Of a DNA stretch of 64,000 nt, positions 32,610 through 34,901 are shown in pieces. The stretch's first letter is position 1. Each line of letters begins with the position of its first letter. The notes beneath the pieces were generated by a model. It made no database searches. It was not told where the DNA came from and saw only the letters and a program-made list of their open reading frames with translations. Source of the stretch: an uncultured Gammaproteobacteria bacterium (GTDB lineage: Bacteria; Patescibacteriota; Microgenomatia; CAYXHB01; CAZYTL01); contig CAZYTL010000007.1 of assembly GCA_964650355.1 (NCBI GenBank), forward strand, positions 4,455 to 68,454. The letters run 5' to 3'. A program made the position numbers and the translations under genes.

Positions 32610-33818
32610 CTTTGTTTTTCTTTCTTTAATTAGATGAAGATAAACACCTAGCCAAAAAATTATTAGTAATAGATTACGCGAACCAATTAATAACATTGGC
32701 CCGGGAGAGACTTCTAATAACAGATGAATCTTGTCAACCGCATAATAAGTCAAATAAGCTGTGGTTAGTCCTTGCATAGAGAGTAATAGACTGAGATAAA
32801 AAAGTACCTGTCGTCTAGTAACTACATGGGACGCATAGCCGTAAATTAACCACAACCCCAAAGGAATCCAGAGCCAGAGTAAATATTGGGGGGATAAGAC
32901 ATTATGGGCGATAAGTAATCCTAAAACCAAAAGTAAACAACTTTGATAAAGCATTTCCGGACGAGATTTAGAAGTCTTACGCAAATAGATGGGTAGGGGC
33001 AATATCAGCGGCAGCCATTTAATTAACTTCAAGAAAGTCCACCAGGCAGGTAACGGGTTAAACATCAGATTGATCGACATATACTCCGGTTGCACACTGG
33101 TATTGATTTGATAACCAAATTGGCTCGCAAGCCACATTAAACTGGCGCTGATGCTTTCAATTTGAGGAGGCCGGCTGATTTGATCCAAAAAACTGTGGCC
33201 AAAACCGACAGCCACCGGCCAGCCGCCCAGATGCCAGATGACAATCAATCCGGGAAAAACAAAGGCCAGCAGGCGAACTAAGTTTAGTTTGGAAAATAGA
33301 GGGCGAGATAAGAATAAAGGCCAAAACAACAGAGGATAGCCCCGGATAACCGCAGCCCAACCCAAAAGAAAATTCTCCAGGACAGGGTGGTAGTTTTGGC
33401 GAGAGAGAAAGGTTGCCAGTAAAATTAAAGCCACTAATAAGTCAGGATTGATAAAGGATTTATTGGCGGTGAGCACTAAAGTGGCGGCGTAGATAATTAA
33501 AAGCAATCTCTGCCATTGAGGTAAGGGGTCGATTTTGGCCGCGATTAACTGATTGAAGAGATAAATAATTACCAGAAAGCTTATCAAGAGAATGGCAAAT
33601 AGCAGGTATCTGAACGTTTCCTCACTCCAGGATAGTTGACGAATGATAATTAAGAAACTTAAAAATCCCGGAGGGTATTCCCAGAAGAAATCCTGATAAG
33701 GTATTTTTCCCGCCAAAAACTGTGAGGAAGTTCGTAGATATTCGATGATCTCAATATTATTGGCTGCGGGGATCAGTAACTTAAGAGCATTGCCAATCAT
33801 ATTAAAATCATAACCCAC
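32586..33818 (-). CDS. polytopic membrane protein, GT87/DUF2029-like (distant fifth relative of the paralog array)
   Basis: DFFWEYPPGFLSF (the YPP motif) and GWAAVIRGYPLLF. About 11 TM helices. Confidence 0.45.
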   Translation of the reverse strand: MGYDFNMIGNALKLLIPAANNIEIIEYLRTSSQFLAGKIPYQDFFWEYPPGFLSFLIIIRQLSWSEETFRYLLFAILLISFLVIIYLFNQLIAAKIDPLPQWQRLLLIIYAATLVLTANKSFINPDLLVALILLATFLSRQNYHPVLENFLLGWAAVIRGYPLLFWPLFLSRPLFSKLNLVRLLAFVFPGLIVIWHLGGWPVAVGFGHSFLDQISRPPQIESISASLMWLASQFGYQINTSVQPEYMSINLMFNPLPAWWTFLKLIKWLPLILPLPIYLRKTSKSRPEMLYQSCLLLVLGLLIAHNVLSPQYLLWLWIPLGLWLIYGYASHVVTRRQVLFYLSLLLSMQGLTTAYLTYYAVDKIHLLLEVSPGPMLLIGSRNLLLIIFWLGVYLHLIKERKTKSLTQTLA

Positions 33819-33848
33819 TTGGCTCTCAAATTCTCACAGTAACTTTGG

Positions 33849-33854
33849 TATAAT
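33849..33854 (+). promoter_or_regulatory. extended -10 promoter (TGgTATAAT) driving the tRNA-Leu locus
   Basis: TTTGGTATAAT lies 14 nt upstream of the first tRNA-Leu 5' fragment. Confidence 0.45.
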
Positions 33855-33868
33855 TTAGCTTGTTATCC

Positions 33869-33940
33869 GCCGAGGTGGTGAAATTGGCCCGCCTCGCGTC
33901 GACTCGTCGAGTCTTCGCGAGTCGAGGCGGGTAGACACGC
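33869..33940 (+). repeat. duplicated 5' part of tRNA-Leu (nt 1-19, then a 44-nt GC-rich palindromic insertion, then nt 20-28)
   Basis: GCCGAGGTGGTGAAATTGG, then [CCCGCCTCGCGTCGACTCGTCGAGTCTTCGCGAGTCGAGGCGGG], then TAGACACGC. This is identical to the 5' end of the intact tRNA at 34240, except for the hairpin insert. Confidence 0.6.
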
Positions 33941-33941
33941 T

Positions 33942-34190
33942 ATGTACTATGTTTATATTCTGTATAGTAAAAATTTTAACAAAATCTATATCGGAATAAC
34001 TTCCGATCTTAAAAGAAGACTTTATCAGCATAATCAAGGATATACTATTTACTCAAAAAGATATCGTCCTTGGGTAATTCTATACACAGAAAAATATTCT
34101 AATAGAAATGACGCCAGAAAGAGAGAAAGGTATCTCAAATCAGCAGCTGGCAGAAAGTGGATTAGAAGATGTGTTTTTAAATCTAAATAA
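33942..34190 (+). CDS. GIY-YIG nuclease family protein (YhbQ/UPF0213-like, free-standing)
   Basis: YVYILYS..KIYIGITSDLKRRLYQHNQG....YRPWVILYTE......ARKRERYLK, with the GIY and YIG motifs plus the Arg and Glu of the catalytic core. 82 aa. Confidence 0.7.
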   Translation: MYYVYILYSKNFNKIYIGITSDLKRRLYQHNQGYTIYSKRYRPWVILYTEKYSNRNDARKRERYLKSAAGRKWIRRCVFKSK

Positions 34191-34239
34191 TTAATGGAAT
34201 CGATTTTTAATAGTGATCTTTAATCCGTCGATTCCACGA

Positions 34240-34324
34240 GCCGAGGTGGTGAAATTGGTAGACACGCAGGCTTGAGGGGCCTGTGGGCGAATAGCCCGTG
34301 GAGGTTCAAGTCCTCTCCTCGGCA
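34240..34324 (+). tRNA. tRNA-Leu (anticodon GAG), class II with a long variable arm
   Basis: Acceptor GCCGAGG/CCTCGGC, discriminator A. Anticodon stem-loop CAGGC-TTGAGGG-GCCTG. Variable arm TGGGCGAATAGCCCGT. T-arm GGAGG-TTCAAGT-CCTCT. No encoded CCA. Confidence 0.85.
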
Positions 34325-34390
34325 CTTCTGCAAAGCAGAATTGCGTCAATTCGGCATTGGGTTGGATAACAAAAATTCTGCTTTGCAGAA
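34325..34390 (+). repeat. perfect 18-bp inverted repeat (CTTCTGCAAAGCAGAATT...AATTCTGCTTTGCAGAAG) with a 31-nt loop that fills the tRNA-Leu/tRNA-Val spacer
   Basis: The two arms are exact reverse complements. The element abuts both tRNAs. Confidence 0.6.
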
Positions 34391-34467
34391 GGATCCGTAG
34401 CTCAGTTGGCCAGAGCGCTTGGTTTACATCCATGAGGTCGCAGGTTCGAGCCCTGCCGGATCCACCA
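34391..34467 (+). tRNA. tRNA-Val (anticodon TAC), CCA encoded
   Basis: Acceptor GGATCCG/CGGATCC, D-arm GCTC-AGTTGGCCA-GAGC, anticodon loop TTTACAT, T-arm GCAGG-TTCGAGC-CCTGC, ACCA 3' end. One U.U mismatch in the anticodon stem. Confidence 0.7.
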
Positions 34468-34502
34468 GTGAAGAGGAATAATGTTTACTATAATCATTAC
34501 AG

Positions 34503-34901
34503 ATGCCGCTAAATACAGCTGAAAAAGACCGGCTGCTGCAAACCGAAATTGTATATTTGGCCACTGCGGATTTGAAAGGCAATCCTCACGTAAAGCCGAT
34601 TTGGTTTGTTTATCACCAGGGTAAAATTTGGTTTGAAACTCATTTGCCAACCCGGGCGTTTAGGAACATTAAAGAAAATAACAAGATCATGCTTTGCTTC
34701 GGCGGCAGGGAAACTTACTTAGTTTGGGGGAAGGTGAAGTGGTATGAGGAAAAGAACAGCCCTGTGCCTTTTAGAGAACTGCTTTGGGATAAATATGGAG
34801 AAGATATGGATGACAGTTACATAACAGAGAAAACAAGAATTTTTGAAGTCATCATTGAAAAAGAAACTTCTTGGCATTACGCCGATCAAGATTGGGAGTG
34901 A
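34503..34901 (+). CDS. pyridoxamine 5'-phosphate oxidase-like FMN-binding family protein
   Basis: VYLATADLKGNPHVKPIWFVY..GKIWFET pattern of the PNPOx-like split barrel. Confidence 0.6.
   Translation: MPLNTAEKDRLLQTEIVYLATADLKGNPHVKPIWFVYHQGKIWFETHLPTRAFRNIKENNKIMLCFGGRETYLVWGKVKWYEEKNSPVPFRELLWDKYGEDMDDSYITEKTRIFEVIIEKETSWHYADQDWE

Follow-up and report, generated by a model that had tools for sequence, protein, structure and literature searches.

A Single-Domain GIY-YIG Nuclease Gene between Partial and Intact Copies of tRNA-Leu, with a GC-Rich Hairpin in the Partial Copy: A Candidate Mobile Mini-Element of Bacterial Stable-RNA Genes

The tRNA-Leu(GAG) Locus

The term 'window' is used here to describe the whole stretch of bacterial DNA that was analyzed, 64,000 nucleotides in length. 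Within this window, a gene encoding an 82-amino-acid GIY-YIG nuclease is nested between an intact tRNA-Leu(GAG) gene, found downstream, and a partial copy of that same tRNA, found upstream (Table 1). That is, nucleotides 1 to 19 along with nucleotides 20 to 28 of the tRNA are repeated ahead of the intact gene with a start-to-start spacing of 371 nt, just as an earlier note on this DNA had described, including as to the presence of an 82-aa GIY-YIG gene between the two copies. The upstream nt 1-19 copy runs from the 5' strand of the acceptor stem to G18G19 in the D-loop, a hairpin then interrupts, and the copy of nt 20-28 is separated from the ATG of the nuclease gene by a single base, T (33941). 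Neither ARAGORN nor Rfam calls a tRNA at the upstream fragment. An Rfam scan of positions 33500-34700 at E <= 10 returns two tRNAs only, i.e., tRNA-Leu(GAG) as well as a tRNA-Val(TAC) at 34391-34467 (seen with ARAGORN, too), and neither the fragment nor the hairpin yields an intron, ribozyme, or known cis-element.

Table 1. Features of the tRNA-Leu(GAG) locus in window coordinates.
Feature	Position	Strand	Basis or remark
Extended -10, TGGTATAAT	33846..33854	+	Read from sequence; 14 nt ahead of tRNA fragment
Upstream copy of tRNA-Leu(GAG) nt 1-19, GCCGAGGTGGTGAAATTGG	33869..33887	+	100% identical to 34240-34258
GC-rich imperfect hairpin, 44 nt, in D-loop of partial tRNA copy	33888..33931	+	DNA fold
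Copy of tRNA-Leu(GAG) nt 20-28, TAGACACGC	33932..33940	+	Identical to 34259-34267
ORF, 82-aa single-domain GIY-YIG nuclease (UPF0213/Slx1-like)	33942..34190	+	ORF list; Pfam PF01541
Spacer, stop codon to intact tRNA, 49 nt	34191..34239	+	Unlike leader of empty site
Intact tRNA-Leu(GAG), downstream of ORF	34240..34325	+	ARAGORN; Rfam tRNA 52.8 bits

Ahead of the fragment is an extended -10 element, TGGTATAAT, which the earlier note had likewise pointed out, though it is absent from the output of a simple -35/-10 scan. This element is a putative ancestral tRNA-Leu promoter which now would represent the sole promoter-like element found 5' of both the fragment and the ORF. The interval from hairpin to ATG contains no promoter-like element, and no Shine-Dalgarno-like sequence is found at the usual distance ahead of the ORF. 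On the other side of the ORF, the spacer leading to the intact tRNA is 49 nt long in the window versus only 0-40 nt in most relatives. Found within it, at 34196-34235, is the small AT-rich hairpin (GGAATCGA...TCGATTCC) that had been noted previously as preceding the intact tRNA, present indeed but weak (-5.9 kcal/mol, z = -2.3). Among plus-strand ORFs of at least 40 aa lying wholly between the repeats, the GIY-YIG gene is found alone, with no tyrosine or serine recombinase, and the 64-kb window holds no further copies of the GIY-YIG gene.

The Encoded Protein

Against Pfam, the 82-aa protein matches GIY-YIG (PF01541) over residues 1-70 with E = 7.6e-18 and 65 bits, relative to a cut-off of 22.6, so that what had been a reading of the translation is upheld by profile. 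Across an alignment of 23 sequences, residues V4, Y5, Y16, G18, R26, H30, E62, and K66 do not vary, and the Tyr, Tyr, Arg, His, and Glu that are the catalytic residues of GIY-YIG nucleases are all retained. An AF2 model (pLDDT 93.3) predicts a succession of strand, strand, helix, strand, helix, and helix, which is the GIY-YIG fold. The best Foldseek matches to that model are 1ZG2, Slx1 (6SEH, 7CQ3), and 1YWL, with I-TevI (1LN0) behind. For the best of the UPF0213 and Slx1 matches TM is 0.70 and rmsd is about 2 A, with a TM of 0.68-0.70 for the two Slx1 structures and an identity of 31% for Slx1. A sequence search of the PDB yields only 1YWL (E = 3.7e-7) and 1ZG2 (E = 1.9e-3), and the closest solved relatives of the window protein are UPF0213 proteins. 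No NCBIfam model claims the protein, with TIGR01453 sub-threshold at 17 versus 56 bits.

Likeness to UPF0213 (YhbQ, YazA) and Slx1 proteins is seen with the best sequence and structure matches and with the catalytic residues, and UPF0213 proteins too consist of a single domain of approximately 80-100 aa. To our knowledge, however, housekeeping yhbQ and yazA are neither tRNA-linked nor nested in duplicated target sequence. Slx1, for its part, requires an Slx4 partner and possesses a RING domain. Both Pfam and the AF2 model indicate that the window protein consists of a catalytic domain only, without a separate DNA-binding domain. As all characterized homing endonucleases, so far as we are aware, possess a DNA-binding domain, sequence-specific homing by this 82-aa protein is doubtful.

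An Empty Site in a Syntenic Relative

Related loci are designated here by L numbers. One of these, L094, is syntenic with the window, i.e., PGA_cap followed by GT87 in both, and displays what can be described as an empty site. There the same TGGTATAAT along with a shared leader motif, AGCTTGTTA, is followed by a directly contiguous tRNA-Leu(GAG), with two adjacent variable-arm bases differing between the two tRNAs (GGGCGAATAGCCC in the window versus GGGCAGATAGCCC in L094). The relative is a distant one, its neighboring protein being 48% identical and the single homologue found. Metagenome contigs that were scanned for exact matches to the leader plus tRNA start yielded no closer relative and no population-level polymorphism.

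The earlier note had as its core the suggestion that a GIY-YIG gene had entered the 5' part of a tRNA gene, with an intact tRNA regenerated downstream and with the old 5' end and promoter left behind upstream. The empty site, with its promoter, uninterrupted tRNA-Leu(GAG), and lack of a GIY-YIG gene, bears this out: Sequence comparison demonstrates insertion into the tRNA-Leu(GAG) gene at the window locus. The copy at 33869..33887, given a left flank held in common with the empty site, is on that evidence the ancestral tRNA position. Strict homing and co-transcription with the tRNA are, for the window locus, what we infer in addition.

A junction of 33887 with 34259 would, in a formal sense, yield an identical tRNA, and the locus had been described as compatible with a 371-nt D-loop intervening sequence. 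That idea now can be dropped. A complete, normally scoring tRNA already exists downstream, no group I or group II ribozyme or other RNA family is matched, and L094 points to insertion instead. Chance repetition is countered by a BLAST E of 5e-7 for the 19-mer repeat, as obtained with a search within the local region, and both chance and assembly artefact by recurrence of the same design in more than 100 independent assemblies, isolate genomes among them. To such readings, whether as intron, split or permuted tRNA, chance repeat, or artefact, we consequently give next to no credence.

The Family and Its Stable-RNA Genes

Approximately 150 further loci share the window's design, which lends additional support to the insertion reading of the earlier note. 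Family copies, 205 in total, were considered as two independent collections of 118 and 87, the second a metagenome set. A tRNA, tmRNA, or RNase P RNA gene is present within 150 nt for 154 of the 205, and in 154 of 154 cases that gene is found on the same strand (86 of 118 in the first collection and 68 of 87 in the metagenome set, with all 86 and all 68 co-oriented). These RNA neighbors mostly are tRNA genes, with tmRNA and RNase P RNA detected by Rfam in L038, L052, L077, and L084. The copies without an RNA gene within 150 nt mostly are inner members of tandem arrays, are at contig ends, or have tmRNA neighbors, and for about 10 copies no RNA gene is detectable nearby. The family as a whole is large, consisting of 6,700 clusters at 50% identity with E <= 1e-10, and the carrier phyla include Patescibacteria, Bacteroidota, Proteobacteria, Planctomycetota, and Verrucomicrobiota. 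Only 3 weak relatives occur on viral contigs, none of them beside a tRNA, so a phage origin is not supported.

The architecture is family-wide and comes in two mirror-image forms. With the ORF upstream of the tRNA, the order is partial 5' copy, hairpin, ORF, and then intact tRNA, whereas with the ORF downstream it is intact tRNA, ORF, hairpin, and then partial 3' copy. Beyond the ORF, as seen from the intact gene, a partial copy of the neighboring tRNA is present in 63 of 92 cases with an upstream ORF and in 25 of 56 with a downstream ORF, versus 0 of 24 control windows. Duplication of a 5' end, considered unusual in the earlier note, is the commoner of the two configurations within this family. 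No published description of this architecture was found in the searchable full-text literature, which omits most subscription journals.

The element is not a simple transposon with target-site duplication, as the hairpin is found inside of the duplicated segment and the length of the repeat varies from 10 to 74 nt. A second integrative possibility, one which we consider very unlikely, is that of a miniature element, that is, a circle carrying the interrupted 5' part of a tRNA which would have entered by a Campbell-style crossover within nt 1-19 as catalyzed by a host recombinase, the GIY-YIG protein then being an accessory or passenger. The layout of A, hairpin, B', ORF, A', and B is exactly the product of a single crossover in segment A, and for the 3' mirror image there is a resemblance to the classical islands of tRNA genes and their att repeats. 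Breakpoints in tRNA loops flanked by stem symmetry also recall the sublocations of integrases within tRNA genes, which Williams in 2002 reportedly placed in just such loops. An integrase or recombinase gene is nonetheless absent from the units, as it is from the neighboring genes that were inspected at related loci, and the repeats are short, at 12-36 nt. A circular form is not indicated by any of the data, and the match to the local tRNA that is seen on both sides of the hairpin following a change in tRNA species would be left unexplained.

Hairpins within Partial tRNA Copies

The 44-nt hairpin of the window is approximately 73% G+C, in comparison with approximately 43% for the window. As DNA it folds with -17.7 kcal/mol (z = -4.2), a value which none of 200 shuffles equals. 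Its GC richness and its D-loop location are as had been described by the earlier note but its perfection is not, since a 9-bp outer stem is followed by a 5-nt asymmetric bulge and then an 8-bp inner part, with complementarity of 86% when taken as 14-nt arms. No second copy is found in the 64 kb with 3 mismatches allowed, and simple 6+3+6 hairpins occur window-wide at the chance rate (18 versus 18.25). An RNA fold for the window locus suggested that the hairpin's 5' arm might sequester the acceptor strand of the fragment, an idea that is not general as such complementarity is absent from double-hairpin loci.

Though viewed previously as a local anomaly, the hairpin has homologues (CCCGCCTCG...CGAGGCGGG) accompanying related ORFs. 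In L015, L099, and L100 the D-loop position of the homologue is that of the window, whereas in L016 the homologue is nearer to the 5' end of the tRNA copy. The layout in the first three of these is that of the window as well, i.e., hairpin, 8-10 nt of D-arm sequence, and then an ATG following 1 or 9 more bases. The hairpin, as these comparisons of sequence indicate, is a conserved part of the element. Many other relatives instead possess 30-nt double hairpins, the stems of which covary, with the window's single composite 44-nt hairpin representing another subtype. Within partial tRNA copies, inserts occupy a D, anticodon, or T loop or else the boundary between a stem and its loop, and the tRNA-derived sequence that is left between hairpin and ORF is 6-13 nt long.

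A GC hairpin is present within 80 nt in 57 of 109 family copies versus 9 of 432 control windows. With an unbiased pattern test, fully paired units were seen in 27 of 59 instances near ORFs versus 18 of 827 in the background. Covariation of the hairpin stems is seen as well, both partners having changed in 7 of 12 pairs, and it is on these two-sided changes along with the pattern test that we rely. The pairing percentage from the covariation set was set aside, that set having been chosen for its perfect stems, which renders the percentage circular. Imperfect stems are few and mostly contain non-pairing mismatches, with G-T making up only 2 of 7 odd pairs.

Inheritance, Copy Dynamics, and Selection

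Hairpin and ORF are seen, by sequence comparison, to be inherited together across different tRNAs. The window, at tRNA-Leu, and L015, at tRNA-Asn, have proteins that are 57% identical along with homologous hairpins, and the same is the case for L016, also at tRNA-Asn, with its protein 51% identical to that of the window. In L099 the protein is 66% identical to the window's and the hairpin is present. The fragment there is of a Leu(GAG) type, equal to that of the window at 27 of 28 positions, but the intact tRNA behind the ORF is Leu(CAA), which agrees with the L099 fragment at only 22 of 28. While the window's two tRNA copies are identical, the fragments of L099, L100, and L010 all differ from the adjacent tRNA, differences which loss of a neighboring tRNA could explain as well. 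The compensatory D-stem differences of L010 were considered as proof of a foreign copy, but that is over-interpretation as it is the 'intact' copy which has the less canonical D-stem.

Copy number varies. Tandem units that are 98-100% identical are found as 2 copies in L006 and in L007 and as 5 in L034, and Aequorivita loci differ in possessing one versus two copies. ORF-less remnants exist (L025, L065), as do decayed older copies, and L031 has acquired an additional hairpin in comparison with L030, the two ORFs being 92% identical. Within a single genome, copies residing at different tRNAs have diverged (38-56% aa), and recent jumps from one tRNA species to another are not in evidence there.

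Family dN/dS values are 0.06-0.13 and the proteins are, to judge from these, under purifying selection. Between L018 and L025, identity is 95.7% over the block made up of leader, hairpin, and fragment, versus 90.5% for the ORF (dS 0.46) and 52% for further-upstream sequence, a comparison of sequences that demonstrates selection acting on the hairpin as well as on the ORF.

That a non-coding block should be better conserved than the synonymous sites of an ORF invites a highly improbable alternative, by analogy with the transposon-end guide RNAs of TnpB and IscB, in which a transcript of fragment plus hairpin, or instead the hairpin as DNA, would guide or scaffold the minimal nuclease to tRNA genes. 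A conserved, covarying hairpin flanked by a match to the tRNA target, lying on the same strand as the nuclease gene and probably transcribed along with it, would fit such targeting, as would a protein lacking any DNA-binding domain. With the downstream form, however, the hairpin is found in mirror image, 3' of the ORF, which better fits a role at the level of DNA than of RNA. At 82 aa the protein also is far smaller than any known RNA-guided nuclease, no Rfam family is matched, and the odd pairs of imperfect stems are, as noted above, mostly non-pairing.

Weighing more heavily, though still unlikely in our estimation, is the possibility of a resident, host-beneficial UPF0213/Slx1-like nuclease that is retained at highly transcribed stable-RNA genes to deal with R-loops, cruciforms, and stalled forks. 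Partial copies, hairpins, and tandem arrays then would be by-products of breaks rather than any means of spread. Such residency is consistent with strong purifying selection over long divergence, with the absence of near-identical copies at different tRNAs of one genome, and with protein clades that keep to one tRNA type across species, e.g., a tRNA-Ser clade. It is consistent too with a predicted fold that is nearest that of the structure-specific nuclease Slx1 and with rarity on viral contigs. It is less readily reconciled with an empty site in a syntenic relative, with a fragment-hairpin-ORF unit that in L099 fronts a different tRNA, or with an occupied tRNA species that varies between genomes, several diverged copies being found per genome. 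The existence of ORF-less remnants and decayed older copies argues against residency as well, and an ORF that lacks a promoter-like element and is nested in duplicated target is, furthermore, the layout of mobile endonuclease ORFs (PMC3630166).

A Proposed Means of Spread

We consider it probable that the insert is a mobile mini-element, one which colonizes stable-RNA genes while keeping one intact copy of the gene, and which probably is expressed from the tRNA promoter. Its bounds would be 33888-34239 or instead 33888-34258, depending on which copy of nt 1-19 is counted as inserted, for a length of approximately 370 bp. Its parts would be a GC-rich hairpin module along with one gene, that for a minimal (82-aa) nuclease of UPF0213/Slx1 type. 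Sequence from the tRNA would be found on both sides, with the old, hairpin-split 5' part (nt 1-28) upstream and the complete tRNA downstream, and it is this bracketing, with a complete copy downstream, that allows an essential gene to survive.

The ORF, promoterless, would be transcribed from the tRNA promoter, with its mRNA released by processing of the tRNA. The nuclease is predicted to break DNA at tRNA genes or at hairpins, and recognition may be of structure, a possibility raised by the placement of hairpins in tRNA loops and by a fold closest to that of the branched-DNA nuclease Slx1. Host recombination repair, making use of the tRNA-homologous arms which flank the ORF, then would copy the unit into cognate tRNA genes, and copying by repair would also yield local tandem arrays. 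The hairpin would be a constrained and heritable part of the unit, and may serve either as the nuclease's site or as a device which inactivates the pseudo-copy as a target. Classical immunity it cannot provide, as the intact tRNA of an occupied allele retains every tRNA sequence. What we infer comprises the activity of the nuclease, the substrate on which it would act, the pathway of repair, and co-transcription.

Certain observations count against mobility. A dN/dS of about 0.1 over a dS of greater than 1 also fits a gene that is beneficial to its host, the 6-13 nt of tRNA sequence found between hairpin and ORF are left unexplained, copies at different tRNAs of one genome are diverged, approximately 10 copies lack a detectable RNA gene nearby, and the lone empty site for the window locus is in a distant relative.

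Should there be such an element, it would represent a class of mini mobile element as yet unrecognized, very abundant, and found in many bacterial phyla, which leaves stable-RNA genes intact. It would explain thousands of annotations as "GIY-YIG nuclease family protein" as well as many tRNA fragments and pseudo-tRNAs, and it bears on the origin of tRNA gene arrays, on tRNA gene disruption, and on split tRNA genes. The puzzle is how a nuclease domain without a DNA-binding module finds tRNA loops, which could be in a structure-specific or nucleic-acid-assisted manner. Very unlikely, in this regard, is a reading in which the hairpin, along with the tRNA-derived sequence on its flanks, would serve as a targeting device for the smallest programmable or structure-guided nuclease known so far. 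That device could be a transcribed guide or scaffold RNA, or else a DNA hairpin mimicking the cloverleaf or cruciform of a tRNA gene, by which an 80-aa GIY-YIG domain lacking a DNA-binding domain would be led to the loops of stable-RNA genes. If so, then this would be a new class of mobile element, one inserting by nucleic-acid structure rather than by sequence.

Comparison with Known Systems

For the mobile mini-element that we favor, the closest analogue is the mobile endonuclease ORF ('mORF') of fungal mitochondria, with its duplicated gene terminus. mORFs are free-standing LAGLIDADG or GIY-YIG ORFs which are found in conserved genes and which bring with them a second terminal part, leaving one functional gene and the other copy displaced (PMC3630166). 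They are co-transcribed with the host gene and spread horizontally, with examples including the ORF360 of Allomyces macrogynus atp6 and those of Glomus atp6, atp9, cox2, and nad3 (PMC3630166). In the window, similarly, the endonuclease ORF has a functional gene on one side and a displaced partial copy on the other, and the same is seen with those family members in which a far-side partial copy is found (63/92 and 25/56). The downstream-ORF form, i.e., intact tRNA, ORF, and displaced 3' part, indeed has the mORF topology, although the form that is commoner here, with its 5' part duplicated, is the mirror image.

The nuclease here differs in being a bare 80-aa domain, the family in spanning many bacterial phyla, and the partial copy in being interrupted, in a tRNA loop, by a conserved hairpin module. 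Targets also differ, as these are bacterial stable-RNA genes rather than protein-coding genes. Such targets are without synonymous sites, so an occupied allele is not made immune in that way, and the element, if real, would be a bacterial counterpart of mitochondrial mobile ORFs but one whose RNA genes offer no synonymous sites. GC-rich double-hairpin elements were reportedly described by Paquin et al. in 2000 from those same fungal mitochondrial genomes.

T4-like phages encode free-standing Seg GIY-YIG homing endonucleases, SegB being found in a tRNA cluster, for which an intron-less spread via break repair as well as local segmental amplification are reported (PMC2988022, PMC13096335). There, too, a GIY-YIG gene is found between or beside tRNA genes. 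Neither a partial tRNA duplication nor a hairpin module is known to have been described for Seg. Seg proteins are approximately 200-250 aa in length and possess DNA-binding domains, versus 82 aa without, and they are phage-encoded whereas the family considered here is almost absent from viral contigs. The modeled fold also is nearer that of Slx1/UPF0213 than that of I-TevI.

Islands and prophages of integrase type share with the present loci their tRNA and tmRNA targets, restoration of the gene by an element-borne copy, and a displaced partial copy as direct repeat. The breakpoints of such integrative elements are said, following Williams in 2002, to be located in anticodon or T loops. The differences are a lack of integrase, a size of 0.3-0.4 kb versus 10-100 kb, and here the usual duplication of the 5' part, with a hairpin found inside the displaced copy.

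Lastly, the tRNA genes of Neurospora mitochondria are flanked by GC-rich palindromes, and the mitochondria of fungi and sponges contain elements of double-hairpin or repetitive hairpin type, all of them presumably mobile. We know of no tie of these elements to any one nuclease gene, nor of their placement inside partial tRNA copies. What they have in common with the hairpins described here is that these are short and GC-rich, are often paired, and cluster at tRNA genes within AT-rich DNA.

Layout of the locus and its empty counterpart

The sequence layout that the earlier note described at the window locus is confirmed (see table), and the ORF that it took for a GIY-YIG nuclease gives a clear domain match. 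The exception is the hairpin, which it had called perfect and which is found to be imperfectly paired. That hairpin, occurring once within the 64-kb window, is far stabler than shuffled versions of it (DNA, -17.7 kcal/mol; z = -4.2). In the locus region Rfam matches the two tRNAs and no other RNA families.

Features of the window locus, and family copies beside tmRNA and RNase P RNA genes (L-numbers are contig loci of other genomes and metagenomes)
Feature	Position	Strand	Basis or remark
GT87-like neighbour, 410 aa	32586-33818	divergent	
Extended -10 element TGGTATAAT	33846-33854	+	sequence
tRNA-Leu(GAG) nt 1-19, upstream copy	33869-33887	+	identical to 34240-34258
Hairpin, 44 nt, ~73% G+C	33888-33931	+	sequence
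tRNA nt 20-28 (TAGACACGC)	33932-33940	+	sequence
Single base T before ATG	33941	+	sequence
82-codon ORF, GIY-YIG domain	33942-34190	+	Pfam 65 bits
Spacer, 49 nt, containing weak AT-rich hairpin	34191-34239	+	sequence
Intact tRNA-Leu(GAG)	34240-34325	+	ARAGORN / Rfam
tRNA-Val(TAC)	34391-34467	+	
tmRNA-associated copies	L038 1990-2374; L052 1956-2367; L077 1956-2356	same as tmRNA	~130 nt downstream of tmRNA gene
RNase P RNA-associated copy	L084 2735-3079	same as RNase P RNA	overlaps RNase P RNA start by 18 nt

For the divergently transcribed GT87-like neighbour the protein collection searched contains a single homologue (48% identity), and this lies on a contig, L094, with the window's gene order, PGA_cap then GT87. 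There an uninterrupted tRNA-Leu(GAG), which differs from that of the window at two adjacent variable-arm bases only, comes immediately after TGGTATAAT and a leader with the shared motif AGCTTGTTA. As promoter and leader of L094 thus run straight into the tRNA, the window's upstream fragment occupies the tRNA's ancestral position, behind the ancestral promoter, while hairpin, ORF, spacer, and a second copy of nt 1-28 are derived. The comparison shows insertion into a tRNA gene with an intact copy preserved. An empty site in a related genome, which the earlier note had suggested looking for, is therefore found, if in a distant relative, and favours insertion; the metagenome scan turned up no closer relative.

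A family associated with stable-RNA genes

Homologues of the window ORF were placed on contigs, and two collections were then surveyed for neighbouring RNA genes. The first, of 118 copies, consists of one genome per species (a scan in which 518 relatives were confirmed and 80 loci retained) plus loci already located. A tRNA, tmRNA, or RNase P RNA gene lies within 150 nt of 86 of these copies, and on the same strand in 86/86; among independent metagenome contigs the corresponding values are 68 of 87 copies and 68/68. Association with stable-RNA genes is family-wide, that is, and strictly co-oriented. Of the copies lacking such a gene within 150 nt, most sit inside tandem arrays or at the end of a contig, while others adjoin tmRNA (L038, L052, L077) or immediately precede RNase P RNA (L084), as matched by Rfam, with no flanking duplication detected at those four. 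Near about ten family copies no RNA gene was detectable.

The family comprises 6,700 clusters at 50% identity (E <= 1e-10), found in Patescibacteria, Bacteroidota, Proteobacteria, Planctomycetota, Verrucomicrobiota, Omnitrophota, and others, and is nearly absent from viral contigs. In Aequorivita, for example, the gene is upstream of tRNA-Arg(TCG), and in a second lineage it directly adjoins tRNA-Ser(TGA), with the ORF in both cases preceded by a partial 5' copy of its own tRNA, interrupted by a GC-rich hairpin. Among database gene calls (cluster representatives P0063-P0212) many proteins begin with 20-50 additional residues, a few being of double length. The family's annotated proteins are thus often too long, as gene callers apparently run the ORF through hairpin and tRNA fragment, or instead fuse tandem copies.

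Anatomy of the unit

The unit, i.e., partial tRNA copy, GC-rich hairpin, and small ORF beside an intact gene, occurs in two forms. In form (a) a partial 5' copy precedes the ORF and then the intact tRNA (partial copy detected in 63/92); form (b), its mirror image, consists of intact tRNA, ORF, and partial 3' copy (detected in 25/56), with the order of insert, tRNA remnant, and ORF likewise mirrored. Control windows yielded partial copies in 0/24. Inserts within partial copies are 11-90 nt long and are located in the D-loop, anticodon loop, or T-loop, or at stem-loop boundaries, with position 12/13 common to Ser, Cys, and Asp tRNAs despite their differing sequence. The last insert is followed by ~6-13 nt of further tRNA sequence and then, after 1-25 nt, by the ATG. 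At its other end the ORF frequently abuts the tRNA exactly, and in L015 (2739-2749) and L016 (~2736-2743) the two overlap by ~10 nt, the stop codon being the TAG of the conserved tRNA D-arm sequence GTAGCTCA. In L057, L039, and L070 the duplication takes in as many as 9 nt 5' of the tRNA.

Most often the insert is a 30-nt double hairpin of two units, each a 6-bp stem with a 3-nt loop (NNNGCC-nnn-GGCNNN), whose stems covary. A GC hairpin is present within 80 nt of 57/109 copies versus 9/432 control windows, and matches to the pattern, pairing not having been preselected, are fully paired in 27/59 cases near ORFs versus 18/827 elsewhere.

Hairpins homologous to that of the window are found in five further loci: L015 and L016, at tRNA-Asn (57% and 51% protein identity to the window ORF), L098 and L100, at tRNA-Leu(TAG) (62% and 58%), and L099, at tRNA-Leu(CAA) (66%). 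L015 shares the window's geometry (insert after G18G19, 8 nt of D-arm, one T, ATG), with local tRNA-Asn matched on both flanks of its hairpin. The L099 fragment, by contrast with its neighbour, is of Leu(GAG) type, matching the window at 27/28 positions versus 22/28 for the Leu(CAA) gene 3' of the ORF, and in L100 fragment and local tRNA disagree in the acceptor stem. Hairpin and ORF thus share their inheritance, the tRNA pieces being local or not, and the three parts of the unit can persist, or move, en bloc; for L099 an alternative is later loss of a neighbouring tRNA gene.

Amplification, decay, and selection

Units within tandem arrays are 98-100% identical (five copies in L034), and Aequorivita contigs hold two tandem copies in some cases versus one in others, whereas identity between copies at different tRNAs of the same genome is no more than 38-56%. 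Lineages that are old and site-faithful, with local amplification, are suggested by this, not promiscuous transposition. Protein clades, moreover, follow target type: a 65-98%-identical clade resides at tRNA-Ser genes whatever their anticodon, apart from outliers at Cys and Asp, and several alphaproteobacterial form (b) loci are mutual nearest relatives. In L106 (1-900) the ORF alternates in tandem with a 96-nt 'tRNA-Arg(ACG)', ending in a 3' partial copy (nt 35-96). As 21 nt are inserted in the T arm, where the T-stem 5' strand meets the T-loop, these repeated ARAGORN 'tRNAs' are probably hairpin-disrupted pseudo-copies.

ORF-less derivatives and decayed older copies are present as well, so that unit comparisons show both local amplification and decay. 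L065 has tRNA-Leu(GAG) nt 1-19 plus ~100 nt with hairpins before the intact gene, and L025 has two 113-nt units (tRNA-Ser nt 1-18 plus 95 nt) before tRNA-Ser(GCT). The 95-nt L025 inserts (2059-2290 and 2750-2863), namely the tandem two and one more between a GIY-YIG ORF and tRNA-Ser(TGA), each behind a copy of tRNA-Ser nt 1-18, have a hairpin of their own, GGGTTTCAAAAGAAACCC, and possibly represent a non-autonomous element sharing the unit's insertion style. In L051 (2870-3280) three tandem pseudo-copies of tRNA nt 18-74, with no ORF, lie 3' of an intact tRNA-Gln. All three have an interrupted anticodon loop, and in the first and third the T-loop is interrupted as well.

When L018 is compared with L025, the 70-nt block made up of fragment, double hairpin, and leader is 95.7% identical and the ORF 90.5% (dS 0.46), with sequence farther upstream unrelated, a contrast which puts the edge of the unit at tRNA nt 1 and shows constraint on the hairpin block. 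L030 and L031 (ORFs 92% identical) differ by an extra 20-nt hairpin gained in one. Purifying selection acts on the proteins (dN/dS 0.06-0.13), so that selection is shown for both protein and hairpin, the latter a conserved module. Such strong purifying selection, along with target fidelity, would also suit the main rival explanation, a resident nuclease beneficial to its host, against which, however, stand the empty site of L094, the L099 configuration, the ORF-less or decayed remnants, and the nesting of the ORF within duplicated target sequence.

A possible mechanism, and its precedents

The ORF would be expressed from the tRNA promoter: between window hairpin and ATG there is neither a promoter-like element nor a Shine-Dalgarno-like sequence at the usual distance, and the ancestral extended -10 is the sole promoter-like element 5' of the ORF. 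The absolute strand bias fits this. The region's best -35/-10-like match (33932-33959; 10/12, 16-nt spacer) combines tRNA-derived TAGACA with TATATT of the ORF start and is probably fortuitous, as its transcription start would fall within the ORF.

Catalytic residues are invariant in the family alignment. The AF2 model of the window protein (pLDDT 93), whose 82 aa include no extra domain, is nearest among solved structures to UPF0213 proteins and the Slx1 nuclease domain (TM 0.68-0.70, rmsd ~2 A, 31% identity), with the I-TevI catalytic domain ranking behind (TM 0.53). Slx1 is a branched-DNA-specific nuclease. Recognition may thus be of structure, not sequence, given this fold, the lack of a DNA-binding domain, inserts in loops, and one position used across different tRNAs. 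That forms (a) and (b) are mirror images favours a role of the hairpin at the DNA level.

Nuclease-induced breaks would be repaired using tRNA-homologous arms, the partial copy supplying target homology on both ORF sides while sparing the tRNA gene. The occupied allele, however, still has a whole tRNA, which speaks against its classical immunity to cutting. With intron-encoded endonucleases it is exons which supply flanking homology, a role taken here by the partial tRNA copy. Mitochondrial mobile ORFs carrying a duplicated gene terminus follow a comparable logic (PMC3630166).

The full-text literature searched, subscription journals excepted, yielded no published description of this architecture. 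Its kind has three precedents: mobile endonuclease ORFs accompanied by a duplicated terminus of their target, GIY-YIG genes that stand free among the tRNA genes of phages, and integrative elements that target tRNA genes. Relative to these, bacterial stable-RNA targets, predominating 5' duplication, a minimal nuclease, conserved hairpins inserted in loops, and the scale of the family appear new.

Other hairpin arrangements

In L065 an ORF downstream of tRNA-Leu(GAG) lies between 39-nt direct repeats (2444-2482 and 2792-2830), each a double hairpin which begins at, and finishes with, the tRNA 3'-terminal ACCA. In the window the entire tRNA-Leu/tRNA-Val spacer (34325-34391) forms an inverted repeat, its perfectly matched 18-nt arms 31 nt apart and touching both tRNAs (DNA fold, -19.7 kcal/mol; z = -6.9). 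Both arms are in turn 6-bp, 3-nt-loop hairpins (TTCTGCAAAGCAGAA, TTCTGCTTTGCAGAA), the loops being mutually reverse-complementary. As this is the unit geometry of double hairpins beside GIY-YIG genes elsewhere, the repeat may be a remnant or relative of the associated hairpin module.
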